Below are positions 1 to 43,099 of a DNA stretch of 44,015 nt, in pieces. The notes under the pieces are model-generated. The model worked only from the letters and a program-made list of their open reading frames with translations. It made no database searches and was not told the origin of the DNA. Origin of the DNA: Escherichia phage vB_VIPECOTPH05B; sequence record PQ429080.1. One strand, written 5' to 3'. The position numbers were made by a program, and so were the translations under genes. Position 1 is the stretch's first letter, and every line of letters starts with the position of its first letter.

Positions 1-1857
1 TTATCTTCTTCCTCTATGTTGTTTACCTCTGCCCCGGCTCTGCAGCCGAGCAGCTACACCCCGAAGGCCCTTAGACACTTTGCTCTGTGCCCAATCCAAC
101 GGGTTCTCAATGAAGGCCCGAGCCATCTTCTCAGACTCACGCTCAGCCACTACTTTCTCGTCTTCCACCAGGTGCCCGTTCAGCGTAGCCACCATCATGG
201 CGATTGCGTCTGCTCGGTCATCCTTAGCCAGGCTACCGCGGTCGTACGTGATACCAGCCAACTGTGTGAACGCAGAGTACAGCCAACGTCTATCGCGGGA
301 GTACGCCATACAGGTACTGATATCGTCGTGAACCGCACGCTCATGCACCACCAGGCGGTGACGGCGAGTAACTGGGCTGATTGTGTCGATTATACGACGC
401 TCTTTCTGCGTGGAGTTGTTCAGGTCCCTTACACCGATACCGGCGAGACGTCGCTCCCGTAACCGGTTCAGGATAAGCATAGACACGGTGCCGTGCCCCA
501 TGTTGCTCTCCACCACCATATCCGGGATGTCTAACTCTACGCACAGGTCAATCAGTTTATCAATGTTCTCTTCGCTGATACCTCCTTGGAAGCCGCCTAC
601 GGAGAATAGGTGGATGTACGAGTTCGCAGCACCACCAGCAGCGTAGGACACTTCGTCTCCGCCACAACCAGCCGGGTCCACCACCAGCACCTTATGCTGG
701 TACGGCAGGTGCATATCCCCGTAGAATGCTGGGAAGTACATCTGCTGACCCATAATCCCCTCATGCTCGTGCTGGTACAGGTACCGGCGGTCTGCAATGT
801 AAGAGAACGTCTCGGGAGAGGAATCCTGACTGCCTGAGTAAACCAGCATATCCGAAAGCTTGATGCGTGTACGCATCTGGTCGGACAGGGTGGTATCGAG
901 CATGTACTGTAGCTGGAAGCCCTCCGGACCGAAGTCCAGCTCCTTCTCAATCAGTGCATCCTCATCATAGCGCCCAGTGTCTGTGCTCTCGCCTAGCGTC
1001 CCGTCGACGCCGAAGCCGGTGCGTTTATAGCCGCGCTCAATAAGCTCCAGTATATAAGGAGCAAGTGTACTTCCATATCGCTCTTCCATTTCAACAGATG
1101 GAATGCGCCCAGGCCACACGCGGACCTCAAAGCCACGTCCCGGCAGGGTTTTATAGATGCTGTCCTTGGTCTGCGGTGTGCCAAGGTACAGTATGTCCCC
1201 ATGCGTACAGATAGCTGCGAAGTCCTTCGAAATCATCAGCAGCTGCTCACGCTGGGTTTGCGTTAAGCCGTTCTTGGTGGTCTCGATATCGTCTGGAATC
1301 AGCAGGTCCGCACGCTTCCCCTGCAGGGATGCAGTGATACCTACACAGGCCACGCTGGCGGACTTATCCAGTGGTTTCAGGTCGCAGTTGACATCATAAC
1401 CTTCGAATGAAGTACGGTCCCCACGAGTAGGGTCAGCCTTCAAGTAGCACAGCAGTGGCCAGGTTTCCAACATACGAATGATTAGGTTCGCTACATCGGA
1501 CGCCTGCTTCTCTGCACCAGACACAATCAGAATACGGCAGGATTGGTCCTGGATAAGCCTCCAGACGGCATAGAGTGCAGCCAGTGTAGACTTAGCTTCA
1601 CCACGCTGTGCGGCCACCATGCGCTTCCTAGGGCCCTTCTGCATGTACTCTGCAATGTCGGCCTGCATGTCCGTCAGCGTAAAACCCAGGAATCGCATAC
1701 CGATGTACGCGAATTCCCGGAAGTCACTTAACGCAGCGGCCATCATCATCGCGATGTCCTCGCGCTCCTCTTTGGGAATACTGCGCGGATTCGCACTATA
1801 ACCAGTAAGTTTCTGGTTGAGCATGCGCAGTCTTCGCGCAGTCTTCACCGATACCAT
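1..1857 (-). CDS. Terminase large subunit (T7 gp19-like packaging ATPase/nuclease)
   Basis: 618 aa; ATPase-like N-terminal half and nuclease-like C-terminal half typical of T7-group large terminases; last gene of the structural block; stop codon (TAA) occupies window positions 3..1. Confidence 0.88.
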   Translation of the reverse strand: MVSVKTARRLRMLNQKLTGYSANPRSIPKEEREDIAMMMAAALSDFREFAYIGMRFLGFTLTDMQADIAEYMQKGPRKRMVAAQRGEAKSTLAALYAVWRLIQDQSCRILIVSGAEKQASDVANLIIRMLETWPLLCYLKADPTRGDRTSFEGYDVNCDLKPLDKSASVACVGITASLQGKRADLLIPDDIETTKNGLTQTQREQLLMISKDFAAICTHGDILYLGTPQTKDSIYKTLPGRGFEVRVWPGRIPSVEMEERYGSTLAPYILELIERGYKRTGFGVDGTLGESTDTGRYDEDALIEKELDFGPEGFQLQYMLDTTLSDQMRTRIKLSDMLVYSGSQDSSPETFSYIADRRYLYQHEHEGIMGQQMYFPAFYGDMHLPYQHKVLVVDPAGCGGDEVSYAAGGAANSYIHLFSVGGFQGGISEENIDKLIDLCVELDIPDMVVESNMGHGTVSMLILNRLRERRLAGIGVRDLNNSTQKERRIIDTISPVTRRHRLVVHERAVHDDISTCMAYSRDRRWLYSAFTQLAGITYDRGSLAKDDRADAIAMMVATLNGHLVEDEKVVAERESEKMARAFIENPLDWAQSKVSKGLRGVAARLQSRGRGKQHRGRR

Positions 1858-2159
1858 TAGACAATTCCTTCTAGTAAGTCCTCAGAGTCTGAACCACCAA
1901 CTTTATTTAGAATCTCTTGCTTACGCGCCTCTCTGCGCGCCGCCAGTTCGTCATCGAACTCGTCACGAAGGTCCTGCATCTCCTCGGAATCTGCATCCGC
2001 GGTAATGTCATTGTCCTTCAAGAACTTAGCGATAACTGATTTATCTGCGGCGGGGAGCGGCACCTCATCTTCCTTAGACTGCTTGATTTCTTCAATCAAG
2101 GCCTCGGTGAACATGCGGTGCAGCTCCGAGAGGCGACTGCGTTTAGCCGCCCCTGCCAT
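1857..2159 (-). CDS. Terminase small subunit (gp18-like)
   Basis: 100 aa, charged and helical, immediately upstream of the large terminase; its TAA stop overlaps the large-terminase ATG (TAATG). Assigned by position and size. Confidence 0.55.
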   Translation of the reverse strand: MAGAAKRSRLSELHRMFTEALIEEIKQSKEDEVPLPAADKSVIAKFLKDNDITADADSEEMQDLRDEFDDELAARREARKQEILNKVGGSDSEDLLEGIV

Positions 2160-2183
2160 AATTATACCTCGTGGTTGATGCTA

Positions 2184-4430
2184 CTACATTTTAACTTTTA
2201 CAAACCCGTTAGCGTCCCTATACAGCCGCCCAGCAACTGTCGGTACTGTGTCGGTCAGTGATGGGAACGATACGTCATCGTCTGCACTAAACAATCCACT
2301 GGCGCTTATGTTTGCAAATTGCACATCACCAGCATTTATGGAGAATTCAGGCATTGTCAAGTTCGCTCCTAACCTGTTAGTGGAGTACTGGGGTGACATC
2401 ACGAACAGGTGCTCGTTTGTGGGAATGCTGCCTGTGATGATAGTACCCACCCCGCTAACCCCCGATACATTCAAGTCACCCTGTATATTGATGATGTTGC
2501 GCCCCGCGCTGCCAACATAGTTTATAAACTTACACCCGTATACGTAGGCATTAAACGAGCAGTTTTTTACCTGAGAAGAGGCGTCAGTACCCAATTGCAG
2601 CGCGTGCACAGCCGTAGCTGGCGTACTGTTCATTGGCGCCCCAACAAATCCGTGGAACATGTTAGCATCGCTAGCCATAATAACAGCTGCGCCCGCTTGC
2701 CAGTTCGAATACACTCGGGTATTTATTACGGAGTTTCTAGCACCCTCAAAATACACCTGAGCGCTTGCTGCGCCCTCAAAATGGCAGTTGCTAATAAAGG
2801 TGTCGTAGCCTGCCACGTACAGCCCGTAGCGCATACGGTTACTGTATAGAGGTGTCACGTTGGCATCCCCGAAAGCCCACACATGCATCTGAGAGCCGCG
2901 AGTACCCCCACCACCACCATAACGGATACCATCATAGGTGTTGTGTGCTAGCAAACCTGCGCTACGCACCATCAAATGGTCTGATTGGTTGTCGGAAGAA
3001 CCACCAATAACTATACCATGTTGCCCAACCATATCTACTCGGATATCCGAGTACTTGCTTGGAGCCATGTATTTTATACTGGTATTACCCCTGCCCCCCA
3101 GGTTTACCCCCACGCCTCTGCAGTACCCAGCACGGATGCCTTTTAGATTTGTACCCGCCCCGTAAATCCGGAGGCACTCAGTATGCGACCGAGTATTTTC
3201 AGCGGTCCCATCCCAACCTCCCTCAATTATAAGGTCCTCTATGTAGATGGAATTCACCATAGCCGAGGGCACGTTTACCGTAAGATAATCTCCGGCTGGC
3301 GCGTTGCGCGACTTAACTATAGCATCATCCCAACTGCTTAAAGCCAAAACCCTAGAGATGCCTTCCACCCCAACAACTTTTACGCTGTCAGGTAAAATCC
3401 AGGGGCCGGACGTGGCGTAGGTTTTGGGCCCCAGATAGATTGGGAGGGACAGGCTCGCAGCGTATTCCGCAGCCGAGTTTAGGGCTGCAATGTCATCTGT
3501 GACCCCATCCCCGACGGCCCCAAACTGTTCCGGAGTTATAAACCACAGTACCAGCTTAGGTATAATTGAACCCGCTTTATAGTCTAGCGCGGACTGTACT
3601 GTGCCGCCCTGCGAAGTTCCAATGTAACCGGCACCAGACGAGCTGCTCAGCATGGCGAGTATATTGGCTAACGCAGACGTATCTGCCTCTGTGTCTATGC
3701 CAATAGTACAATCCACCAAGGTGCCCGCCGGTAGTACTGAGGTGAATTTAATAGACCCATCAATGACATCGTAAGAGTACCCAGCTGTCTGGGTTACACC
3801 ATTTACGCGAACCTTAGCCTTAGTGAAAGGCATGCCGGGAGTTACGGTATCCGTAGCAGTTGTCAGTACAGTCCACCAAGGGAAGCTGTTAGTGTTTGCA
3901 TTGAAGTGAGTCTGCTCCAGATTCACTATACGCGTATCCAGTTCAGCGTCAGCAGCCTCACGAGCAGCTGCCTCAGCATCTACTCGCACATCCAGCCGGG
4001 CATCCCCGGCATCGACGTATTGCTTGTTCGCAGCGTCCTGTGCATCTACTGGGTCGCCCAGGTTCGTGATGCGGTAACGATGCATATTAATGTCGCCATA
4101 GAAGCCTTCGATATAGCGGCCCTCAACCAGCTCTTGAGCCAGGTGCAGGAGCTGCATATTCTGGGTATCTACGTTTACTTCGATGAACGGAGCACCACTA
4201 GCAAATTCAATGTAGAGGTACTCTCGTTCAGTCTTACGAATGAGCAGTACCTCCGTCTCTGCAGATAGCGCCGAATTCAGTCGAATATTGGTGGAGCTGG
4301 TCCAAGTAAAGGCGGTGGTCTCGACGCCATCCAAATAAACGTGAATATAGGACTTATCCAGGTACTCAATATCGCACTGGATATCCTGAGTACCTGCAGG
4401 CTTTACCGACTCTTGCCAGCTGAATGCCAT
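2184..4430 (-). CDS. Tail fiber / tailspike protein (T7 gp17-like N-terminal adaptor plus beta-helix-like C-terminal domain)
   Basis: 748 aa; N-terminal about 150 aa resembles the conserved gp17 tail-attachment domain; the remainder is Gly/Asn/Ser/Thr-rich in a way typical of right-handed beta-helix receptor-binding or depolymerase domains. Confidence 0.75.
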   Translation of the reverse strand: MAFSWQESVKPAGTQDIQCDIEYLDKSYIHVYLDGVETTAFTWTSSTNIRLNSALSAETEVLLIRKTEREYLYIEFASGAPFIEVNVDTQNMQLLHLAQELVEGRYIEGFYGDINMHRYRITNLGDPVDAQDAANKQYVDAGDARLDVRVDAEAAAREAADAELDTRIVNLEQTHFNANTNSFPWWTVLTTATDTVTPGMPFTKAKVRVNGVTQTAGYSYDVIDGSIKFTSVLPAGTLVDCTIGIDTEADTSALANILAMLSSSSGAGYIGTSQGGTVQSALDYKAGSIIPKLVLWFITPEQFGAVGDGVTDDIAALNSAAEYAASLSLPIYLGPKTYATSGPWILPDSVKVVGVEGISRVLALSSWDDAIVKSRNAPAGDYLTVNVPSAMVNSIYIEDLIIEGGWDGTAENTRSHTECLRIYGAGTNLKGIRAGYCRGVGVNLGGRGNTSIKYMAPSKYSDIRVDMVGQHGIVIGGSSDNQSDHLMVRSAGLLAHNTYDGIRYGGGGGTRGSQMHVWAFGDANVTPLYSNRMRYGLYVAGYDTFISNCHFEGAASAQVYFEGARNSVINTRVYSNWQAGAAVIMASDANMFHGFVGAPMNSTPATAVHALQLGTDASSQVKNCSFNAYVYGCKFINYVGSAGRNIINIQGDLNVSGVSGVGTIITGSIPTNEHLFVMSPQYSTNRLGANLTMPEFSINAGDVQFANISASGLFSADDDVSFPSLTDTVPTVAGRLYRDANGFVKVKM

Positions 4431-4431
4431 A

Positions 4432-7400
4432 TTAATCGTCTCCGAAGTTATTGATGATAGCTCGCGTAGGTGCGAATTCCTGTATTAGCGGCACCTGCTT
4501 AGTGAAGGTCTTTATATCCATATTACCGGTAGCCAGGTCCTGTACGGCCCCGAGCAACCCTGTGACGTAACCCATAGATGCCAACGAGTGACGAGGGGAA
4601 TCTCCCAGGAAGATATCCTGCAGTAAGGATACCCCGCCGATGGCACTCATACCCATTACGGACTCGCTGATGAGTTTCTGAGTGTCTACGTCCTTACCAT
4701 CCATGCCATGCTTAGCCATAGTAGCCAGCAGCATTAACGGGAACTGGTACGCCATAATATGGGCTACGCCAATCCACCCAGCGTCGTTCAGCTCTCTGCG
4801 CAGAATCTTGTTAGTGGCTGCCAGTGCGAAGCTCTGGTACCCTACAATGACTTTGCCGATAGGATTGAACTGTGCAAAGTGCGAGGTCTCTCCAGTACGA
4901 ATCTGCTGTACCAGGTAGTCCATCATACGCGTCCCCACAACCTCAACTTGCATCTGCAGGTCCGGCTGGAACATAGCGCCCGGGTTAGCCTTGTTGGCAG
5001 CGATAGCGCGGTCAGCAACATCGCGAGTAAGCCCGAAACGCTCCAGACGCTTAAACGCCTCAGCATCGCCCTTGAACATCTGAGTAAGCTCGTCCGCCAC
5101 AATACCGGAGTTCAGGTTCACCTGTAGCCGGTGCACCATGCTCATACCGTTGACGTGACGGGCAGCCTGCCCAACGTTCTGGGTGACGTTGAACCAGGAG
5201 GCCTGACGGGTCAGGTCCAGGTTATCGTCAGCGTACGTATTCAGCCAGCGGAAGCGCATCTCCTTCTGAATATTACCCCGCAGCACGGTATCTAGACGAG
5301 CAGCCATATCCGGGGTCTTGATAGCCACGGCACCTTCCTTGAACCAAGGCTGGTCACGCATACTGCGCAGCACTCTAGCCATACCGAACTCCTTCATAGC
5401 CAAAGCAGTATCGGTCAGCTGATACAGGCCGGAGTTCTTAAGCATAGTGGCGTTTGCCATATTCCCAGCTGCACGCAGCAAGTCCGGAAGCTGCCCAGCG
5501 TCAGCAGGTGCCCCACCCAGGATAAAGTCGATGGTGTCATTGACGGTCTTCTCCCACTTGGCGGAATCCGCTAGTACGTGCTTAGACTCATCAATCATCT
5601 TGGCGAGCTGTCCCAGGTCCTGTACGCCTGCATAGGCCATACCTACACGTCCAGACATACGGTTAGTGTACCCGTGCATAACCTTGGCTACGTCAGTATC
5701 CATCAGGTCCTGCATGCGCATGCTCTTACCGTTCACCAGATACTCTTTATCCATGTTGAACCGAGTACGCTGGCGCAAGTTCCGCGCAGGGGATGTGCTG
5801 CCGGATTCGCGTACGTTACCAGCCAGGAAGCTCTGGATTGCAGACTCTTCTACACCGGCGCTGCGCATAGCCATAACGACCTCGTCGTTACCCATGCCGT
5901 TAATCAGCTGCTTCCACATAGGGCCAGCCTGCCCAGCACGGCCATTGTAGATGCCGTCAACCATCTCCTTAGCAACACGCTGCACTACCTCTGACTCCAT
6001 GCTCGGGTACACATCCCGCAGGGCGGACCGGAACAGGGCGCGGTAGTCATCCAGGGTATTGCCTTGTGCGATACCTTGGCGCATCTTGTCGTAGCTGTAC
6101 TGGCGCGGGAAGTAGTAGTCGGATTTAACCAACGCACCATCATCCACTAAACCGGCATTGAGCATATGCTCGTGCCACTTGCTAGCCCAGCCAGAGCGGC
6201 GATAGGCGTCAACCAGTGGAGCAATCTCTGCGTCCGGCACCGGCACAGCGCGGCCGTTTACGTCAGCGCTGTAGGCAGCATCCAGGTACTTGCTCAGGCG
6301 GTCTTCCAGCGCAGCCCGCTCAGCGCGGAAATTACTACGATGGAAGAAGCGTGAGAGTACACCTACACCCTTATCCTTCAACGCGCCCAGGATAGCATCT
6401 TCCACTACGCTGGCGCGAGCATCCATCTCCAAAGTTAGGTTACGCTTGTAGTCTACCACTGACGGGCGACGGCCGCCTACTGCGGACGCATCCGACACTA
6501 GCAGTTTAGCCAAGTCTTCGTTGCCTTGGGCGATATTATCGTACAGGGCAAACATAGTGGAGAGCTTCTTCTTAGCGCCGTCCAGCATAGCTTGGGCGCG
6601 CTTAGCCTCATTGAGGGTGGTGCTGCCCGCCAGGTCCTGGAAGGCTTCGCTACGGAAGCTCTGGGCTTGGTCTGCATAATCCTTAGCTGTCCACTTAACT
6701 GCGTCCTCATACGCATCCAGGACATCTTCCAAGGCAGAGCCTTTTGCCTTGATGCCCAGAGCGTTCATGATGTACTCACCCAGTTGGCGGAGCATACTCT
6801 TACCGGTGGGAGACTGCGTACGTGCCAGGTGCTCAACCCACTCAGGGCTGTCGCCTAAGCCTGCCAGCATCTCATGCACATTACTTGCGTAATACCGCAT
6901 ACGCGGTGTCAGGGTGGAGTCAGCCGCAATAACAGCGCGCACTTCCTCCAGGCGTTTAGCAATCTCGGGATTACTGTCAATGGCGCGCGCAGTAGCAGCA
7001 TGAATCAGTTCGTGCACGGCCACCTTGCTTGTATCTGCATCCATAGCGCGCAGCGCATCGCCGACTGTAGTCCAGGTGCTGCCGTTAGCTTGCTTAGGCG
7101 CACGCAGGGATATCTCTCCCCGCTTAGCTAAATCTTGTTGTGCGTAAGTGTAGCGGCTACGGTTTGCGGAGCCTGCTACCAGTTTAAAATCAATGTCATT
7201 TACAGCATCGCCCAGCGTGTACAGAATAGCCTTCTGTCCTGCTGTCAAGTGCTCAGACTTCTTCAAGAACTGAACTACGTGCTGTGCTTTCATGTTCACG
7301 GAGGCGGTATTGTTTCTCGATACTTGGATGCTTTCATCCAGTGTCTTAGTGAGAATTTCCTCTCCCTCTCCTACTCCGGTAACATTAGCATCCCTCGCTG

Positions 7401-8130
7401 TACGAGTTGTAGGCGCTTCTGGGTCGAACATGGGCTCACGCCCAGTACGAGCCTTAGCGGCAGCTTTAGCAGCCCTAGACATATCCCAGAGCTGGTCTAA
7501 CCCAGCTACGCCCGCTATCAGTGCAGTTACCGCGGCGGACTGGCCCAGTTGGTCCTGTGCATAGAACGCAGTGCCTACATCAGCAGCGCGGATAGCGGTA
7601 CGTGCAGCTAAGCCCGCGCGGCCAGCAATACCGGCGGCAGACATCGGGGCCAGGATGAACGGGGAGTCGCCTACCAACATACCCGCGAACCCGGCTACTG
7701 TGTTGTCGGCCATTAAGCGGTCACGGTCACGTTGCTCAAGCATCTGCTGCATGCGGTAGTTGTAATCTTCCACAGACACGGAGTCGTGCAGGTACTCAAT
7801 CTCTTCCTGATTCGGAGCATACAGCTTAGCCCGAGTATCGCTACTCAGGGTCTGCTTAGCATTAAAGTTCGGGTCTCGGTCAAATGCCGGAGCAGAGGCC
7901 TTGCGGATAGCTGCGGCGATTATGCTGTTGCCCATACCTGACGCAAAGCTCTCTGCGGCTGTAGTAGCCGGAGTCTTGGCTTGCGCTAGTAATGAGGCAC
8001 GCTCCAGTGCGTTCAGGCCGTTGTCCCCGGCATCGTTCCAATCTACGCGCTCAGGCGCAGGTTTAAGTGTTGCGCCCTTAGCAGAATCCTTTTCCTGTGG
8101 ATTCGGTTCTTGGTTCAGAAACTGAGCCAT
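4432..8130 (-). CDS. Internal virion (core) protein, largest (T7 gp16 / phiKMV gp37-like)
   Basis: 1232 aa, Ala-rich and predicted helical; third of three consecutive large genes between tail tube B and tail fiber. No transglycosylase motif recognised by eye. Confidence 0.7.
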   Translation of the reverse strand: MAQFLNQEPNPQEKDSAKGATLKPAPERVDWNDAGDNGLNALERASLLAQAKTPATTAAESFASGMGNSIIAAAIRKASAPAFDRDPNFNAKQTLSSDTRAKLYAPNQEEIEYLHDSVSVEDYNYRMQQMLEQRDRDRLMADNTVAGFAGMLVGDSPFILAPMSAAGIAGRAGLAARTAIRAADVGTAFYAQDQLGQSAAVTALIAGVAGLDQLWDMSRAAKAAAKARTGREPMFDPEAPTTRTARDANVTGVGEGEEILTKTLDESIQVSRNNTASVNMKAQHVVQFLKKSEHLTAGQKAILYTLGDAVNDIDFKLVAGSANRSRYTYAQQDLAKRGEISLRAPKQANGSTWTTVGDALRAMDADTSKVAVHELIHAATARAIDSNPEIAKRLEEVRAVIAADSTLTPRMRYYASNVHEMLAGLGDSPEWVEHLARTQSPTGKSMLRQLGEYIMNALGIKAKGSALEDVLDAYEDAVKWTAKDYADQAQSFRSEAFQDLAGSTTLNEAKRAQAMLDGAKKKLSTMFALYDNIAQGNEDLAKLLVSDASAVGGRRPSVVDYKRNLTLEMDARASVVEDAILGALKDKGVGVLSRFFHRSNFRAERAALEDRLSKYLDAAYSADVNGRAVPVPDAEIAPLVDAYRRSGWASKWHEHMLNAGLVDDGALVKSDYYFPRQYSYDKMRQGIAQGNTLDDYRALFRSALRDVYPSMESEVVQRVAKEMVDGIYNGRAGQAGPMWKQLINGMGNDEVVMAMRSAGVEESAIQSFLAGNVRESGSTSPARNLRQRTRFNMDKEYLVNGKSMRMQDLMDTDVAKVMHGYTNRMSGRVGMAYAGVQDLGQLAKMIDESKHVLADSAKWEKTVNDTIDFILGGAPADAGQLPDLLRAAGNMANATMLKNSGLYQLTDTALAMKEFGMARVLRSMRDQPWFKEGAVAIKTPDMAARLDTVLRGNIQKEMRFRWLNTYADDNLDLTRQASWFNVTQNVGQAARHVNGMSMVHRLQVNLNSGIVADELTQMFKGDAEAFKRLERFGLTRDVADRAIAANKANPGAMFQPDLQMQVEVVGTRMMDYLVQQIRTGETSHFAQFNPIGKVIVGYQSFALAATNKILRRELNDAGWIGVAHIMAYQFPLMLLATMAKHGMDGKDVDTQKLISESVMGMSAIGGVSLLQDIFLGDSPRHSLASMGYVTGLLGAVQDLATGNMDIKTFTKQVPLIQEFAPTRAIINNFGDD
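7369..7388 (-). promoter_or_regulatory. Conserved element TTACCGGAGTAGGA, copy 3 (inside the largest internal virion protein gene)
   Basis: 14-nt exact match to the core of the other two copies, same orientation, followed by GAGGGAGAGG. Confidence 0.25.
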
Positions 8131-8180
8131 AATATCTCCTAAAAGAATTTTGATAAGGGGAGGCCCCGAAGGGCCTCTGG

Positions 8181-10865
8181 TTAGTGCGTTGCTTCAAAGA
8201 GCCAATCGCGTAGGTTTTGTTCCAGGTACTTCTTACGCTCAGGTTGGGCCTGCTTGTACGCCGGGGTATTCCGCAGCGCTTGCCAAGCCCTACCCTGGGC
8301 CTCAGATACAGGGTACTGATACGCCCCCACCGGGGACTTAGCAGCCTTGCGTACCTGTGCCATCGCCTCTGCTACAGGGCCAGAGCTACCATTACCACCG
8401 TGATAGTTCAGGTCCACCATTACCTTTAACGCCTCGTCGGAGGCATTCAAACCCTGCCCCTTGAGTTGCTTCTGCACGTTCGGGATGTACTGCTTCTCCA
8501 GGGAGGACTTGAGGATACTGATGCCGTCATCAATGGTCACTTTCTGTGGGACTGGCATGCCAGAGTTAACGTGCAGACCGAAGCCTACACTGCCCTTGCC
8601 CTTACCTTCTCGGAACCCTTCGAACTTCATAGTGGTGGCGAGAATGTCACTAAACAGTGATGGTTCCAGCCCTACCGAGTTACGGCCGTTGACCTGTACG
8701 CTGACAGCGCGCCCGTTGTCGTGGTCGTAGAAGGTGGCGGGACGTACACCTACTTGCTCGCTTCCAATCTTCATCTCCCCAGCCAGTGCTGAGTCATACG
8801 CAGCCTGAGCAGTAGCCTGAACGTCACGAAGATTCACAGACATATCCTGGAATTTGCCCTTCTTGTCAATGACGATTACGGACATGTTCTGGCCCGCGTT
8901 ACCGGCCGTGGCCGCCTGTATCACCACTCGCTCTATGTTGCTGGGGTCAGACAGGTACTGAACTTGATTCTGGATATGCTGCTGCAGCGATGCTGTAAAC
9001 TGCTCCACATCACCTTTGTAGTCCCCCATAAGGGACTGCAGGGAAGTGCCTGGTGGCAGGTACACATGCCTAGGCGCACCAGCAACCTCCAGCTCCAATT
9101 TACGGGATTGGATGTTGCCTTTGAGCATCTTATTAATATCGTCAGCATCCTTACCAGCGAAGGACTCTGGGTTATGGGTTTTAAGGTAGCGGAACTCCTC
9201 CACCATCGCCGCCCGTGCCTCTTGTCGCTGAGCATCAGCATCCCCGAAGAAGCTAAACCAGTTAGCGGTACCGCTTGGGTCCACCATCTTATCTGTCGGA
9301 GTTTCTGGGATATCAGTATAGCGCCCACTGGCCTTGTTACGCGCCTGGCGGCGCAGGTCGTCCAAGATGGTGTTGCTGGCGTTACTGGGGTTCTGGGCAA
9401 TAGCCGACTGCACCACTCCACGCCACTCAGACGGGACCTCGGATAGCAGCGCCATCTTGCCCAAGTCCGTACTAGTGCTATACGCCTGTGCCCACAAGTT
9501 GATGCTGTTGACGTTCTCCCGGGAAACCTCACCGTCCTCGCCGAGCTGGTCCAGCGTAGTAAGCGTACGTGCCATATCCGAAGACATACGCTTGTGCGCT
9601 TCGTTGACTGCCCACGCATCCTTGCTGTTGCTCCCGTATGACAGCAGCTGCAGGTTCCCTTCCGGGGTATCCGGAAAGCTCTTGAGCAGCCGAGTACGTG
9701 CCTTATCTAAGTCTCCCTTGAACATCCCCGCCAGAGTGGAGCTTGGCATATTCCCAGTAATTGCTGTGCGCAATGCTTGGGCGTCTGCTGCCTTCTCTCG
9801 AATGGTCTGGGCTTTGTTCCAGAACTCCATGCTGGTCCCGGCGCTAAGTACATCAGATGCCGACAGCTCAATGACACGACTACGAATACGCGCCATGGTC
9901 TGTTCTTGCTGCTCAGGAGTCTGCCCCTCAAGAGACTGTATTGCATCAGAGATTTCGAAACGGGCTTGGGTCTCAATCTGAGCACCAGCTCGCTTGAACT
10001 CCTGATACAGCGCTGCGTTGACATCCACGGAGTTGACGCCGAGTTCCTTGGTGGCCATTTCCTGCAGCTGGTTGATTACCAGCGGGTCCTGTGTCTGCTG
10101 CGCTACGCTGACCAGATACTGCTTGGCCCGGTCCAGCTTCTTGCTCTTATCCAGGTGCTCAGCAGCCAGGATACTGTCTAAGCCCGTCTTAATGGACATC
10201 TGCGCAGCGGCACCCTGTCCTGCCTGCAGACGCTGATAGAACTCATCGCTGGACGCACTCAGTCCACGGTCGAGGGCACGGTCAGCCTGGGCCAGGGCGA
10301 ACGCAGCACGTCCTTTCTGGAAGGCTGTGTAGTTCGCCATGCTGGTGGCACGGAGCTGCTGCAGTATATTCGTAGCAGACTGCTTGGACATATCCGGGAG
10401 ATACATACCGAGCTTGTCTGACATTGCCTGGACGTGCTCTTGCTCCTGCTGCTGAAATTCCTCGTCAGTCAGGCCAGACTCAGCAGCTTTTTTAGCTCGT
10501 GCGATACTGCTTGTGCGCCACTTGGCTAGCGAGTCATACGCAGCAGCAGATACGTAGCCGTCCTGGTAGGCTTCGCGCACGAAGATGTTTTGCTTCTGTA
10601 CAGCCTCGTCCTTGGAGGCCATTGCATCCACTGCACCCTGAGCATCCATAGCGCCGCGCACGGTGGCCGCCGCTGCATTTTCTTTTACTGCCTCGTCAAA
10701 GCCCACGCCGAAGTCCTGCACAAACCCAGACAGGGCAGCTAGGCGTTTTGCTTTGGAGGTATCAACAGACACTTCACTCACCGTTGACGGCAAGCTAACA
10801 TCGTTGGACTGCAATTGTACGCCGCCGATATTTAGCCCCTGTCTATTGGGTTGAATCACAGGCAT
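8181..10865 (-). CDS. Internal virion protein (gp15 / phiKMV gp36-like), possible C-terminal lysozyme-like domain
   Basis: 894 aa; syntenic with T7 gp15; C-terminal about 150 aa (FEGFREGKGKGSVGFGLH ... VTIDDGISILKSSLEKQY ... ALKVMVDLNYHGG) loosely resembles a T4-lysozyme-type fold. Domain call is tentative. Confidence 0.65.
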   Translation of the reverse strand: MPVIQPNRQGLNIGGVQLQSNDVSLPSTVSEVSVDTSKAKRLAALSGFVQDFGVGFDEAVKENAAAATVRGAMDAQGAVDAMASKDEAVQKQNIFVREAYQDGYVSAAAYDSLAKWRTSSIARAKKAAESGLTDEEFQQQEQEHVQAMSDKLGMYLPDMSKQSATNILQQLRATSMANYTAFQKGRAAFALAQADRALDRGLSASSDEFYQRLQAGQGAAAQMSIKTGLDSILAAEHLDKSKKLDRAKQYLVSVAQQTQDPLVINQLQEMATKELGVNSVDVNAALYQEFKRAGAQIETQARFEISDAIQSLEGQTPEQQEQTMARIRSRVIELSASDVLSAGTSMEFWNKAQTIREKAADAQALRTAITGNMPSSTLAGMFKGDLDKARTRLLKSFPDTPEGNLQLLSYGSNSKDAWAVNEAHKRMSSDMARTLTTLDQLGEDGEVSRENVNSINLWAQAYSTSTDLGKMALLSEVPSEWRGVVQSAIAQNPSNASNTILDDLRRQARNKASGRYTDIPETPTDKMVDPSGTANWFSFFGDADAQRQEARAAMVEEFRYLKTHNPESFAGKDADDINKMLKGNIQSRKLELEVAGAPRHVYLPPGTSLQSLMGDYKGDVEQFTASLQQHIQNQVQYLSDPSNIERVVIQAATAGNAGQNMSVIVIDKKGKFQDMSVNLRDVQATAQAAYDSALAGEMKIGSEQVGVRPATFYDHDNGRAVSVQVNGRNSVGLEPSLFSDILATTMKFEGFREGKGKGSVGFGLHVNSGMPVPQKVTIDDGISILKSSLEKQYIPNVQKQLKGQGLNASDEALKVMVDLNYHGGNGSSGPVAEAMAQVRKAAKSPVGAYQYPVSEAQGRAWQALRNTPAYKQAQPERKKYLEQNLRDWLFEATH

Positions 10866-14682: not shown

Positions 14683-15702
14683 TTAGGACTTGGTGGTGAA
14701 GGTGAACTTGGTCACTGCAGCGGTGTCCGGACGACGCAGACCGATGTTGTACATCGCGTAGCAGTCCAGCACGTTGCTGAACTCACGCTCATCGTCCCAG
14801 ATACGGGAGGTGAACGGCTTAGCTTCAACAGTCACCAGAGTCTTGGACTTGCTGAAAGTCACCATACGGCACAGCGCGTCGTCAGCGGTGACGGTGTAAG
14901 CAGAGCCCAGAGGGTGTGTACCAGCCGAGGTCGGGAACTCGGTGCACTCTACTACAGGCACGCCGTTCATCTTCACTACACGACGGTCTTTGTAACCGTC
15001 GTTGTTGGACGCACCGAAGTCCAGGTTAAGGAGCTTCGGATGCTCCAGCAGACGCGAATAGGTATCGACATCCACCAGGGTAATCATGTCCGCCAGCGGG
15101 GTCTTGCGCTTGATGAGTTCATCAATACCAGCCTTGTGGGCCAGGTTGATGTTCATGGCGTTAGCCTCCATCTCAGCCTGGGTCAGCTGAGTGGCGGTAG
15201 TGGTACCCGGAACCAGGATAGCTGCACCTACCTCGATACCGTCGTTGAACGCAGGTTTCAGGTGCGCCGGTGCAACCCAGGAGCGGCCCTTGATGAGCTG
15301 AATCAGGTGCGCCTGGTCGAAGGTCTCTGCGAACTCGGAGCCGTTGTTCTGACCCATCTCGGTCAGGAAGTCCGGACCGGTCCAGTCATCCTGGTAATCA
15401 ATCGGGTTACGGATATACAGCACCGTATCCACCACGATAATCATCTTATCGTTACGGACCGGGGTGCTATCCAGCGCCTCACCGGAGCGACGACCCTTCA
15501 CCGAAGAGGTGTTCAGGCGGTCAATACGGTAGGTGTTGGAACCGCTGATAGAGCGCTGGCTGGAGAGGCCCAGGAATAGAGCCTGGTACTGGAAGCGGGT
15601 ATCCACTTCGTTCTGGTACACTTCCAGGTGAATATCTACGTCAGACGCCGCGCCGCCCCAGTGGGCTCTTGTCAGATTACCTTTATAGATAGTGTCGGCC
15701 AT
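14683..15702 (-). CDS. Major capsid protein (T7 gp10-like)
   Basis: 339 aa; size, composition and position (after scaffold, before terminator) match T7-group major capsid proteins; AAGGAA 8 nt upstream of ATG. Confidence 0.88.
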   Translation of the reverse strand: MADTIYKGNLTRAHWGGAASDVDIHLEVYQNEVDTRFQYQALFLGLSSQRSISGSNTYRIDRLNTSSVKGRRSGEALDSTPVRNDKMIIVVDTVLYIRNPIDYQDDWTGPDFLTEMGQNNGSEFAETFDQAHLIQLIKGRSWVAPAHLKPAFNDGIEVGAAILVPGTTTATQLTQAEMEANAMNINLAHKAGIDELIKRKTPLADMITLVDVDTYSRLLEHPKLLNLDFGASNNDGYKDRRVVKMNGVPVVECTEFPTSAGTHPLGSAYTVTADDALCRMVTFSKSKTLVTVEAKPFTSRIWDDEREFSNVLDCYAMYNIGLRRPDTAAVTKFTFTTKS

Positions 15703-28037: not shown

Positions 28038-30391
28038 TCTACTTTCTCCTTACTGTACATACTCGTACCCATCTCAGCCTCTGCTGGGAACGGGACCTCA
28101 CCAATGATACCGTAGTTAGGCCAGAGCTGGTGGATACGCTTAGGTGCGTCCTCCATGCACTGCTTAACCAGCAGGCTCGCCTCACGTCCAACCTCCGGGT
28201 TGGCGCTGTCCAGATACAATGCATCGTGTACGTTCGTAATCAGGCACACCTGATTGTCGAACCAGTCACGGGCCAGGAGTGCACGCAGAACCATACCAGC
28301 CGCCACCGCCATCAGGAAGAATGCTTCCCCCTGGCACCAGTAGTTAGCCATCTCGGTTTCCTTGTAGTCCATGACCTTCTGCTTACGCTGCCCAGGCACA
28401 ACCTCCTTCCACTGCTCCTTCTGGCGGAAGCTATAGCGGGCACCGGCTGGGCTGGTCCACGTCCCAATGCGATACAGTCGGTAGCTGCCGTCGTCCGCCT
28501 GCTCGCGGTACATGCGCCCCTCGTTCCCGGTACGCTCTACCTCTTCCTTGACAACAGCACGGAATCCGATGGTGTCTGGAAACAGCTTCGCCTCGTTATC
28601 CAGGAACGACTGCGCATACTCCACTGTACAGCCTGTAGCAAACGCGATCCCTTTAGCCGTAGCCCCGTACTGTGCAGCAAAGCTGGGCGGCTTAATATCA
28701 GTACGCTGCTGCTTCCAGTACTTGTAGTCCGGTCCGTCTGGGTTATGGCAGAGGTCGTACATCTCCTCGTACGTCTTACCTTCCTTGAACGCTAGGCGAT
28801 AGCAGTGCATGTCCGTGCCCGCCTGTAGTAACCCCAATAATTTGCGGTCTCCAGTGTGAACACAAGACATAACCACTTCCAGGGCAGAGTAGTCAACCTC
28901 AGTGATACGACCAGCTTCTCCGAAACGAGAGGTGAACATCTGCTTAACCCGGCTTGTGCCATCGCGCGGTAGATTCTGGAGGTTCGGGTTAGAGCCCGAC
29001 AGTCGCCCGGTGACAGTGGCACAGGTGTTAAGACGGTGGTGGATAATACCTGAACCATCAGGGTTCTGAGGTATGACGTATTGAAGCATGCCCGAGGTCT
29101 TTTTAACTGACCCATCTTCGTTGTACTCCGTTCTCAGGTAATAGGTCCCTGTGTCTTTCTCTAGAGCACCTAACTCGTTTACCAATCGGCAGAGCTCGAA
29201 ACCTTGGCGAGCCAGTGCCTCCATTGCGTCAGTGCTGGTGCTGTATACTGGCGTACCGTCCTGCAGGGTGCGCGCCTGTCGGAACTCTCCGCGCTCTGCG
29301 TACTTCTCCCGGATAACTTCCGGAAGCTCCTGTATGTTCACCAGTCCCGGGCAGAAGTAAAGGTCATCCTCCCACTTGAGCTTCTCCTCGTCAGTGTCCA
29401 CTCGGAACACTTTAGGTAGGCCCTTGTTCTTCCCTGCTTTGTAGACTACGTAATTGTGAGGTCCAGAGACGTCCGTGCTTTCACATGGTACGAATGTTCC
29501 ATCAGTGCCCTGTACCAGATATGCGTCATACTTAACGTACTGCGGAGGGTCATAGGGTACCTTCTTGCGGTACTTGATAGGCCCGCCGTATACCAGTGCA
29601 GACATATGGAAGTCCGAGCCGAAGTTGAAATCCAGTGTCTCCGGCAAGTCCTTCGGGATGTACTGCTGCAGCTCCTGCTTAATCTCACGGATGCGCTGCT
29701 CCTGCTCCTCCTGGTTCTTGCGCGCAATTGGCATGTTCACGAACAGGCCGAACCATTGACAATAGCTCCAAGCTAGTACTGCCTCCATCCGTTCGTAGAC
29801 ATATTGCATCTGGTTGCGTTCGGCGAATAGGGCGCATTGCCCATAGAAGCACAGCCCGGTATTTGGCACGTCACCGTTGACAAGGTAATCGTGAAGCAGG
29901 TACGGGTCAATTTCGGAAGTCCGCTTTCCTTGCTCCCACAGTATCTTTACCCCATCGACTTTGTGCTGACCACCCCATTTTGGGGCGGTCTCATCTAGCC
30001 CCGGATACATCTCCTGGAAATCTGAGGCTATGTACTGCCCATGCTGCGTACAATATACGCGCCCGCCGCGCTTTAGGAAATCCTCAAAATGTTTTCTCTG
30101 ATATGAGAGGAACCAAGACACCTCGAAGCTGCTGTTGTGCGCGACTATCATAGTGCAGTGTTCTGGTATGGAAAACCACTGGTGCGGCCCCTCGTTGTCC
30201 GCCAGAAACTCAGCCTTGTTGTTGAAGCGAATACTGAATACGTCCCCTATATGCAACTGCCCGGCATCGTCCACCGTGTCTATGCGGTATGCGCTTTCTA
30301 CAACATAGTTATCGGGGCAGTACGGGGATGCTACGTTGCCGTAGTACTCAAAGTTCTCGACCTCTAAATCCACTATCATAATCTGGTACAT
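28034..30391 (-). CDS. DNA polymerase, family A (T7 gp5-like) with N-terminal 3'-5' exonuclease domain
   Basis: 785 aa; DnaQ-like exo motif near the N-terminus (IVDLEVENFEY) and Pol I-type polymerase motifs in the C-terminal half. Confidence 0.95.
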   Translation of the reverse strand: MYQIMIVDLEVENFEYYGNVASPYCPDNYVVESAYRIDTVDDAGQLHIGDVFSIRFNNKAEFLADNEGPHQWFSIPEHCTMIVAHNSSFEVSWFLSYQRKHFEDFLKRGGRVYCTQHGQYIASDFQEMYPGLDETAPKWGGQHKVDGVKILWEQGKRTSEIDPYLLHDYLVNGDVPNTGLCFYGQCALFAERNQMQYVYERMEAVLAWSYCQWFGLFVNMPIARKNQEEQEQRIREIKQELQQYIPKDLPETLDFNFGSDFHMSALVYGGPIKYRKKVPYDPPQYVKYDAYLVQGTDGTFVPCESTDVSGPHNYVVYKAGKNKGLPKVFRVDTDEEKLKWEDDLYFCPGLVNIQELPEVIREKYAERGEFRQARTLQDGTPVYSTSTDAMEALARQGFELCRLVNELGALEKDTGTYYLRTEYNEDGSVKKTSGMLQYVIPQNPDGSGIIHHRLNTCATVTGRLSGSNPNLQNLPRDGTSRVKQMFTSRFGEAGRITEVDYSALEVVMSCVHTGDRKLLGLLQAGTDMHCYRLAFKEGKTYEEMYDLCHNPDGPDYKYWKQQRTDIKPPSFAAQYGATAKGIAFATGCTVEYAQSFLDNEAKLFPDTIGFRAVVKEEVERTGNEGRMYREQADDGSYRLYRIGTWTSPAGARYSFRQKEQWKEVVPGQRKQKVMDYKETEMANYWCQGEAFFLMAVAAGMVLRALLARDWFDNQVCLITNVHDALYLDSANPEVGREASLLVKQCMEDAPKRIHQLWPNYGIIGEVPFPAEAEMGTSMYSKEKVE

Positions 30392-40461: not shown

Positions 40462-40494
40462 GCAAAAAGGGTAAGCAGACCCCTAAAGGTCTGC
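40462..40494 (-). terminator. Possible terminator-like hairpin at the 3' end of the HNH gene
   Basis: GCAGACC-6 nt loop-GGTCTGC stem overlapping the HNH stop codon, followed on the minus transcript by UUACCCUUUUUG. Confidence 0.3.
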
Positions 40495-40869
40495 GTGCAG
40501 TAAGCTATTGTAATCCCCATAGGTTACGTCGAACTCTCGCCAGTTAGTGTCGTAGTCCGGACTAGCCAATAACTCCTCTTTTGTGAAACATCTCCCCTCC
40601 TTAATCTGCGCTAGGTGAATGGCGCGGTGAGTGTCGGCGCTAACCAATATCAGGTTATCAAAGGCGCAGTTAAGACGGTTACTGTCACAGTGATGTACAT
40701 GGTAGCCAGAGCCGTAGCTAGTGATACCCAGTGCATCCATAACCACGGCTCTATGCAGCGCCATAGTCCTACGGTCCTTTTTACCGTTCTTACGTATACA
40801 CGCTGGACCAGCACCGTTAATCACTGGATAGCCCTCTTTATCAACCACAATCTTAAATGTTCTAGCCAC
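40483..40869 (-). CDS. HNH endonuclease (third HNH gene in the window)
   Basis: 128 aa; HVHHCDSNRLNCAFDNLILVSADTHRAIH motif; apparent GTG start with TAAGGAG 8 nt upstream; flanked by the two longest ORF-free stretches. Confidence 0.7.
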   Translation of the reverse strand: MARTFKIVVDKEGYPVINGAGPACIRKNGKKDRRTMALHRAVVMDALGITSYGSGYHVHHCDSNRLNCAFDNLILVSADTHRAIHLAQIKEGRCFTKEELLASPDYDTNWREFDVTYGDYNSLLHADL

Positions 40870-40879
40870 AACAATAACT

Positions 40880-41694
40880 CCTTACATAGTGATGAGTAGC
40901 GTAACCATAGCGACGATATCCCGGAGGGATAGGAGCGGAGGTTACAAGATTCTAGGGATAGCAGCCTACTGCGTAGGCACAGGGCTATCCTAGTGAATAC
41001 CTAGTAGGGACTAGTAAGGACTAGTATTAAGTAGTGTGTATATAGTGCCCTAAAACCCTCCTACTCCGGTTACTTCATTTCATAATAGCTTTCGAATGAA
41101 AGTAAGAGCAAAGGGATAGCATTGGGATAGCGCTGGGATAGCGGCAGAGTGTGGATGTGCGCCCTAGTGGGGAGCGCGCAGCGTAGCATATAATTAGCAC
41201 AATGTAAAGCCCCAAGGATAGCCAGTGGATAGCCTAGTGCATACTAGGGATAGCACTAGGGATAGCACCACAGCGCACTAGCTGGCCCACTAGGCAGGCA
41301 CAAAATAAGCAAGGCAGAGCGCACCCCTATGGCCCACAGGGAGCGCACAGGGAGCGCCTAGTGAACGCACAGGGATAGCACCAGTGCCCCATAGAGCGCA
41401 CAGGAAGCCCTACAAGGCACGCACAGGCAAAGCCATAGGGTAGCACTAGCAATAGCCCTAGCGCAGCGCAGAGAGCCACTGAGGCCCACTGGTGCGCCCT
41501 AGCAGGCCCACCCAGTGCCCCCCCCCTAAATTGGCGCTAGGCACCCCCTATGGGGGCAATTGGGCGCGCTGAGGGTGAGGGACCCTGCCGCGTGAGTATA
41601 ATAAATTTCGGGTTCAGGTATAGACGTGCACCCGGATAGCCCCAGATAGCCCCACATAGACGCCCAGTGCTTACTCTAGTACTTACCCTAGCAC
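40880..41694. repeat. ORF-free repeat-rich region: at least 10 copies of GGATAGC plus CACAGGG/CACTAGG motifs, a C9 homopolymer and short tandem repeats; probable genome-terminus region
   Basis: No ORF of 60 aa or more on either strand across about 800 bp; GGATAGC at about 40956, 41114, 41125, 41136, 41216, 41227, 41248, 41259, 41373, 41634 (first three tandem copies spaced 11 bp); C-run at 41518..41526. Confidence 0.6.
41059..41080 (-). promoter_or_regulatory. Conserved element AAATGAAGTAACCGGAGTAGGA, copy 1 (candidate phage-RNAP promoter)
   Basis: 21 of 22 nt identical to the copy after the RNAP gene; lies in the repeat region upstream of the HNH gene. Confidence 0.35.
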
Positions 41695-41880
41695 TTATTC
41701 TGCGATAGCCCCGGAGGCCCGCAGGGACGCTAACAGGGCCGCCAGAGTAACCGCCAGTGCCTCTGCCGTAGTATCGGTAGCATCAGCTACAGCAACCCCT
41801 TGCAGTACCCCGCCGATAGAGTCCGTAGTAGCTTCCGGTAATACCGGTGCCTTTGCTTGTACAAGCTCAACCAGTGCCAT
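41695..41880 (-). CDS. Hypothetical small protein (61 aa) at the distal end of the lysis cassette
   Basis: ATG 1 nt after the endolysin stop; Ala/Val/Thr-rich with a hydrophobic C-terminal stretch; no lipobox. Confidence 0.4.
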   Translation of the reverse strand: MALVELVQAKAPVLPEATTDSIGGVLQGVAVADATDTTAEALAVTLAALLASLRASGAIAE

Positions 41881-42733: not shown

Positions 42734-43099
42734 CTATACAATTATCAGTGACTGTGAGAACACAGGCATCGGATAGTTAGTATCTTCCGCCGGGTAGAAG
42801 CCGTACCAGGGGCACCATATATCTCGGTTAGGGTACAGTATCACCCAGTGACTGTGACTTGTACCGCGTTCGCATCTAGCCCTCGTTATACGAGTAGCAT
42901 TCGATTTCGACCACCACACCCTGCCCAGACTCACCCCGCAGGTCCTCGCCACTTTAATTAAATCGCTAAAGGTGCTGGCATCTGTAGGACGTTTAAGGGT
43001 GCTTAGCCATGCGGCCTCAATATCCTCATAAGGGATATCTAAAAGGGATGACAGCGCGGCCGCGCCGCAATCGTCGTCCTTACGTTGTAGCGTCTGCAT
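42734..43099 (-). CDS. Small cysteine-peptidase-like protein (papain/C39-like Cys...His...Asp arrangement) in the lysis cassette
   Basis: About 121 aa from ATG with AAGGAA 8 nt upstream; N-terminal DDDCGAAALSSLL and downstream HSHWVILYPNRD resemble the Cys and His/Asp motifs of C39-type peptidases. Motif-level call only. Confidence 0.45.
   Translation of the reverse strand: MQTLQRKDDDCGAAALSSLLDIPYEDIEAAWLSTLKRPTDASTFSDLIKVARTCGVSLGRVWWSKSNATRITRARCERGTSHSHWVILYPNRDIWCPWYGFYPAEDTNYPMPVFSQSLIIV

Follow-up and report, generated by a model that had tools for sequence, protein, structure and literature searches.

In Klebsiella phage KP34, two proteins share the task of receptor binding: gp49, a 307-amino-acid (aa) anchor that ends after its docking domain, and gp57, a separate K63 depolymerase that is encoded after the endolysin and docks via the heptapeptide MALTKLV. 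For KP34-like phages, Latka et al. 2019 (PMC6872550) described an anchor (pfam03906) at aa 14-142 and, after it, a T4gp10-like fragment at aa 186-242 to which the second receptor-binding protein (RBP) docks; an open reading frame (ORF) of phage KP-Rio/2015 was considered there a truncated, probably non-functional second RBP, which defines the 'group C KP34viruses'. In the Przondovirus K5-4, the 749-aa ORF37 (K8dep) consists of a T7-type anchor and a beta-helix depolymerase, and a full-length second RBP, the K5 depolymerase, is encoded immediately downstream. The present analysis concerns a 748-aa protein encoded at positions 2184..4430 (minus strand) of a 44,015-nt stretch of DNA from Escherichia phage vB_VIPECOTPH05B (PQ429080.1); the whole stretch is called the window below.

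K8dep is the only characterised member of its depolymerase family. The purified protein decapsulated the K8 reference strain and two K8 clinical strains and none of 78 other reference types, and the degradation of capsular polysaccharide (CPS) was seen on Alcian-blue gels (Hsieh et al. 2017; PMC5496888). Activity of the purified protein is also reported in PMC13385381, and DepoCatalog re-tested it against K1-K82 and KL101-KL186.

The 748-aa protein is very probably the tailspike of a Drulisvirus of Klebsiella pneumoniae, in which an attachment module conserved in the genus is joined to a second module that was acquired horizontally and belongs to the K5-4 ORF37 (K8dep) family of capsule depolymerases, its activity being predicted from this kinship. 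The window is a complete Drulisvirus genome (KP34-like; Autographiviridae, Slopekvirinae), rotated and reverse-complemented. Over its 2247 nt the tailspike gene is 100% identical to a gene of Klebsiella phage vB_VIPKPNMC07C (PQ505478.1), and four sibling isolates are equally close; these phages come from the Philippines and were all grown on K. pneumoniae OMCS-22-1557. The sequence is thus already in GenBank, labelled only 'tail fiber protein'. An architecture of this type and an exchange of modules are both standard in Klebsiella phages, so that no new biological question arises and nothing departs from known biology; what is gained is a second podophage lineage for a rare depolymerase family, together with what appears to be a clear recombination joint. 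Such a tailspike would determine which Klebsiella capsule type the phage infects, which bears on phage-therapy matching, capsule typing and the use of the enzyme against virulence. The parts of the gene, with the evidence for each, are as follows (AF2, AlphaFold2 model).

2184..4430, minus strand: complete gene of the first and only full-length RBP, 748 aa and stop (ORF list, record comparison)
4056..4430, minus strand: T7 gp17-type N-terminal anchor to the tail (PF03906), aa 1-125 (Pfam, AF2, PDB entries 23sh, 8es4 and 8vbx)
3915..4043, minus strand: one long alpha-helix, aa 130-172 (AF2 full-length model)
3693..3893, minus strand: small beta-domain, aa 180-246, homologous to the 'T4gp10-like' branching/docking domain of KP34 gp49 (67.6% identity, AF2 strands)
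3534..3692, minus strand: helical linker with the SGAGYIGTSQGGTVQSAL junction motif, aa 247-299 (alignments, AF2)
2391..3533, minus strand: right-handed parallel beta-helix, predicted capsule-depolymerase catalytic domain, aa 300-680 (models, structure searches)
2187..2390, minus strand: family-specific C-terminal part, aa 681-748, ending in the conserved GRLYRDANGFVKVK (family alignment)
2164..3672, minus strand: swapped cassette (BLASTN breakpoints)

The depolymerase module and its family

A tblastn search of 50,697 phage records with aa 291-748 gave matches in 15 records only, namely five identical isolates, the Webervirus vB_VIPKPNMC07A, the jumbo phage Centimanus and eight K5-4-type Przondoviruses (49%). 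The match in K5-4 is ORF37, annotated as K8 depolymerase, with an E-value of 4e-112 and 49.3% identity over 91% of aa 291-748. The C-terminal module (aa ~258-748) and ORF37 can be aligned end to end, at 46-49% identity, and the motif G-x-LY-x-D-x-NG-x-VKVK closes both proteins. Unlike these modules, the N-terminal ones belong to different genera, and the identity of the full-length proteins is only 36.6%. The Centimanus gene is annotated as 'EPS depolymerase' (53.5% identity), and the module of the Webervirus, which was isolated on the same host strain, is 58.7% identical over aa 258-748.

In a set of 5.8 billion proteins clustered at the 90% level, the family is small, making up 23 clusters. 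In a library of 1.84 billion representatives (50% clustering), only seven proteins were aligned through to the C-terminus at E ≤ 1e-30; the next tier consists of generic beta-helix proteins (~29% identity) where the helix core alone is aligned and the last ~85 aa are not. Residues D381, E403, D462, D480, D522, D543, E552, H516, H550, R511, R565, R572 and K634 are invariant in 24 of the 24 aligned members (46-98% identity), as are several tyrosines and tryptophans, so that the invariant set holds seven acidic residues, two histidines and three arginines. Charged residues that stay invariant on four virus backbones are more to be expected of a working enzyme than of a passive adhesin. This bears on the possibility that the protein is a binding-only beta-helix RBP, or one acting on the O-antigen of lipopolysaccharide (LPS), that leaves the capsule undegraded. 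Some KP34-like first RBPs have no predicted enzymatic domain (Latka 2019, PMC6872550), and beta-helix adhesins such as PfbA are among the fold matches described below. Such a role is nevertheless improbable, as the family includes an enzyme with proven CPS degradation (PMC5496888) and the phage, which infects encapsulated K. pneumoniae, has no other full-length RBP.

Predicted fold

The region of aa 261-748 was modelled as a monomer from an alignment of 23 homologues, with a mean predicted local distance difference test (pLDDT) score of 77.5 and block means in the core of mostly 80-98. The predicted structure is a right-handed parallel beta-helix at aa ~300-680 with a cap helix (aa 314-327); similarity to PF12708 is seen over aa 302-354, in the first rung and this cap helix. 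The Foldseek search against PDB gave 112 matches at E ≤ 1e-3, and the best 50 of the 112 are all right-handed beta-helix proteins; the matches include AlgE4, phi29 gp12 and the tailspikes of Sf6 and CBA120. The top structural match in BFVD is 'Depolymerase 1, capsule K8-specific [Klebsiella phage K5-4]' (E 2e-20).

The sequence-only reading had taken everything after the first 150 or so residues for a right-handed beta-helix with the fold of capsule or LPS depolymerase tailspikes. The AF2 models, the Foldseek matches and the homology to K5-4 ORF37 agree with it as to the fold and its kinship, but confine the helix to aa ~300-680, the last ~65 aa being a distinct C-terminal part. By analogy with the description of K5-4 ORF37 in DepoCatalog, aa 681-748 are probably an intertwined 'tail-fibre-like plus short C-domain' trimerisation region. 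A non-enzymatic fibrous tail fibre of the T7 gp17 type, with a coiled-coil shaft and a tip domain, is what the GenBank product name 'tail fiber protein' and the T7-type N-terminal domain would suggest. The models leave practically no room for it: only a single helix (aa 130-172) is predicted, and aa 300-680 form a beta-helix.

The A-module of AlgE4 (2pyg), the lyase of coliphage K5A (2x3h) and other beta-helix carbohydrate enzymes are structural neighbours only, with 10-17% identity and no shared catalytic motif established. The catalytic motif of AlgE4, YG(F/I)DPH, has no obvious counterpart in the tailspike, where the conserved T-Y499-D-G-I-R is different. The catalytic core has no sequence counterpart among the solved structures from which the active site could be mapped. 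Glycoside hydrolysis by two of the invariant carboxylates is weakly favoured over beta-elimination. The structural neighbours comprise enzymes of both types. A polysaccharide lyase is unlikely, since hydrolases score nearly as high among these neighbours (GH87 glucanase 31.7, Dettilon tailspike 31.5) and seven carboxylates are invariant. Glucuronic acid forms a terminal side branch in the K8 polysaccharide, and beta-elimination in the backbone would thereby be excluded. Besides, most of the characterised Klebsiella CPS depolymerases are hydrolases, and the classical enzymes of K8 phages are called 'polysaccharide hydrolases' in the title of Sutherland 1976.

The N-terminal tail-attachment module

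The Pfam domain PF03906 (T7 tail fibre N-terminal domain) was found at aa 13-140 with an E-value of 1.8e-15 and 57.4 bits (cutoff 25.2). A much longer part, aa 1-274, matches the solved 307-aa 'tail fiber gp9' (PDB 23sh; E 1.7e-106), and further sequence matches of the module in PDB are Gp44 (8es4) and gp47 (8vbx). The protein shares 67.6% identity with KP34 gp49 over aa 1-249 and 82.7% with the tail fiber of phi1_066009 over aa 1-271. It follows that an anchor was rightly recognised in the sequence-only reading, which gave the tail-attachment module a length of about 150 aa, but that the conserved module extends to ~250-275 aa.

In the AF2 full-length model (pLDDT 75.9), the module consists of a beta-domain (aa 1-125), a helix (130-172), a second beta-domain (180-246) and short linker helices (251-282). 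The helix is presumed to be the coiled-coil neck of a trimer. The segment homologous to aa 186-242 of KP34 gp49 is present, its likeness to T4 gp10 being the label of Latka 2019 (PMC6872550). The closest database relative, P0001 (759 aa, on a 29-kb Logan contig; 94% identity), differs chiefly by an insertion of 11 residues in the helical neck (aa ~150-175), and therefore the length of the neck varies within the lineage.

Mosaic structure of the gene

In a BLASTN comparison of window positions 1-9000 with two Drulisviruses, an identity of ~91% was observed from the upstream virion genes into the tailspike gene. The nucleotide homology stops at 3673 (phi1_066009, codon ~252) or 3816 (KP34, codon ~205) and is back at 2163, just past the stop. 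The gap in homology at 2164-3672 therefore corresponds to an exchanged cassette of 1.5 kb. It is in this depolymerase cassette that the window phage is unlike other Drulisviruses, nucleotide similarity to them being lost after aa ~160-252.

The homology to N-terminal donors reaches aa 271-274 and that to C-terminal donors begins at aa 258, so that the two overlap in the SGAGYIGTSQGGTVQSAL linker, at aa ~253-275. The same motif was found in phi92 gp150, K64-ORF41 and other proteins. Because of this overlap and the recurrence of the motif elsewhere, the linker is, by sequence comparison, the likely recombination joint. Base composition was uninformative as a mark of foreign origin, the GC content being 51.1% in the C-terminal module, 50.7% in the N-terminal module and 53.8% in the genome.

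The depolymerase module is found on four backbones, those of a Drulisvirus, Przondovirus K5-4, Webervirus MC07A and the jumbo phage Centimanus. In vB_VIPKPNMC07A, a siphovirus (PQ505477.1, 2389-4338), it sits on a wholly different N-terminal part. The tailspike and the vB_VIPKPNMC07A copy make a natural pair for the study of specificity and of module exchange across phage families.

A single receptor-binding protein

At the position of KP34 gp57 the window contains only a short ORF:

41695..41880, minus strand: 61-aa ORF right after the endolysin, starting with MALVELV, a MALxxLV docking heptapeptide (synteny, homology to KP-Rio/2015)

The first 28 residues of this ORF share 85.7% identity with the KP-Rio/2015 ORF at 42920-43003. 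With KP34 gp57 itself BLASTP gave no significant alignment; the 61-aa ORF is linked to gp57 because of the MALxxLV heptapeptide, the synteny and the published KP-Rio case. No further tail fibre or spike was found among the annotations of the genome. Since the gp57 position has only this ORF and no other fibre or spike is annotated, the window phage is, judging by its gene content, a member of 'KP34virus group C', with the 748-aa protein as its predicted single functional RBP.

The arrangement is that of the group C type phage KP-Rio/2015, where the gene of a large first RBP (anchor, the fragment called T4gp10-like in Latka 2019, and enzymatic domain) is flanked by those of the internal core protein and maturase A, and a 61-aa second 'RBP' with a MALxxLV start follows the endolysin. 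The gene order is also that of KP34; unlike in KP34, anchor and predicted enzyme form one protein here, and at the gp57 position only a stub is present. In comparison with K5-4, the full-length RBP gene immediately downstream is replaced by a distant stub of 61 aa.

Over residues 12-60 the 61-aa ORF is similar to PHROG 20838 'head fiber protein' (E 7.8e-11). The length of 61 aa recurs in KP-Rio/2015 and KPR2, and homologous matches occur in K66PH128C1 and other phages, which suggests a stably kept small protein and not a random truncation. A K5-4-like phage from the same laboratory, vB_VIPKPNMC04 (PQ505476.1), carries a K8dep that shares 98.9% identity with K5-4 ORF37; the gene of its second RBP (4270-5037) has 768 nt versus 2055 nt for the K5-4 K5 depolymerase and may be another truncated one.

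Proposed mode of action and capsule specificity

The first module (aa 1 to ~250-275) would begin with the T7 gp17-type anchor, which would plug into the tail adaptor or nozzle, continue with the helical neck and be completed by the T4gp10-like domain that docks the second RBP in relatives. The second module (aa ~258-748) would lead from the linker into the right-handed beta-helix and end in a short C-terminal part whose chains intertwine to form the trimer. By analogy with the family, six tail-borne trimers may bind capsular polysaccharide along the groove of the beta-helix and cleave it processively, and the cleavage would open a tunnel by which the virion crosses the capsule and reaches the outer membrane. 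The depolymerase module would then set the capsule type open to infection, the expected target being the capsule of the isolation host OMCS-22-1557.

Several observations weigh against the interpretation of the protein as a capsule depolymerase of the K8dep family, or against its K8 specificity. The Pfam beta-helix and pectate-lyase models stay below their gathering scores (PF12708, 25.5 vs 27; PF13229, 17.5 vs 25.9), and membership among the beta-helix tailspike depolymerases is based on the fold and the K8dep homology, Pfam apart. In a search of PDB sequences with the family profile, matches were confined to the linker and the first rung (phi92 gp150, Depo32 and K64-ORF41), with none in the catalytic core. 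The models are monomers in which aa 683-720 have a pLDDT below 50 and are unmodelled, a gap compatible with an intertwined trimer part. Some first RBPs of Drulisviruses were reported to be without enzymatic activity (KpV74; Latka 2019, PMC6872550). A literature search on the phage name found no paper, and the Centimanus paper gives no capsule types. The phage vB_VIPKPNMC04, with its true K8dep, came from a different strain. Finally, the identity to K8dep falls to 13-43% in the distal third of the protein (aa 560-725), which makes K8 specificity uncertain: in comparison with the K8dep-like member P0023 it is 53-70% at aa 366-560, 33-53% at aa 560-680 and 13-30% at aa 681-725.

The chance that the target is K8/KL8 or a chemically related type is about even. 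That a protein of the same kind has a non-K8 specificity, maybe for a capsule type without a characterised depolymerase, with the divergent sequence of the distal third (aa ~560-725) as its determinant, is a serious possibility, somewhat short of an even chance. It would agree with the modest overall identity to K8dep, lowest in the distal third, and with the different host strain of the K8dep phage; DepoCatalog also ties switches of specificity to C-terminal changes. In addition, the tailspike groups with P0001 and P0002 (78-98% identity) in a clade distinct from the others. Against a non-K8 specificity, an identity of only 28-58% is common between enzymes of the same K-specificity that stem from different phage groups (PMC13385381), and the catalytic core is as close to K8dep as the figures for aa 366-560 indicate. 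If the specificity is indeed not K8, the switch would lie in the distal third, with a 53-70% conserved core retaining the same chemistry, and the tailspike could be used together with its counterpart in Webervirus MC07A, a phage of the same host, to map the determinants of specificity.

Gene boundaries and other features of the genome

In the ORF list the tailspike gene is an ATG-initiated ORF of 748 aa (2184..4430, minus strand). It starts 1 nt past the stop of the gene of a 1232-aa internal virion protein, with a GGAG ~9 nt 5' of the ATG, and is closed by a double stop, TAG TAG. The ATG of the small terminase, preceded by GAGG, is at 2159, 22 nt past the second TAG. The gene order, namely the internal virion (core) protein, the tailspike, and the small and then the large terminase, is the same in KP34. 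The ORFs on the plus strand within the gene (2248-2520, 2409-2849, 2938-3165 and 3906-4268) were rejected as antisense artefacts because all annotated genes of the phage are on one strand.

The small terminase ORF (100 aa; 1857..2159, minus strand; PHROG 891, E 7.5e-32) is unannotated in PQ505478.1. In that record the linear sequence opens with terL, whose first base doubles as the final base of the small-terminase stop codon, and for this reason the ORF is one base short at the end of the record.

Three genes of HNH homing endonucleases were also found, at 40483..40869 of the window (minus strand) and at 15006-15479 and 29681-30157 of PQ505478.1; one of the three is located between the scaffolding and major capsid genes. 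About 0.8 kb between the HNH gene and the 61-aa ORF (window ~40870..41694) is without a minus-strand ORF of at least 60 aa. By analogy with KP34, where a direct terminal repeat follows gp57, this region probably contains the physical ends of the genome and the early promoters.

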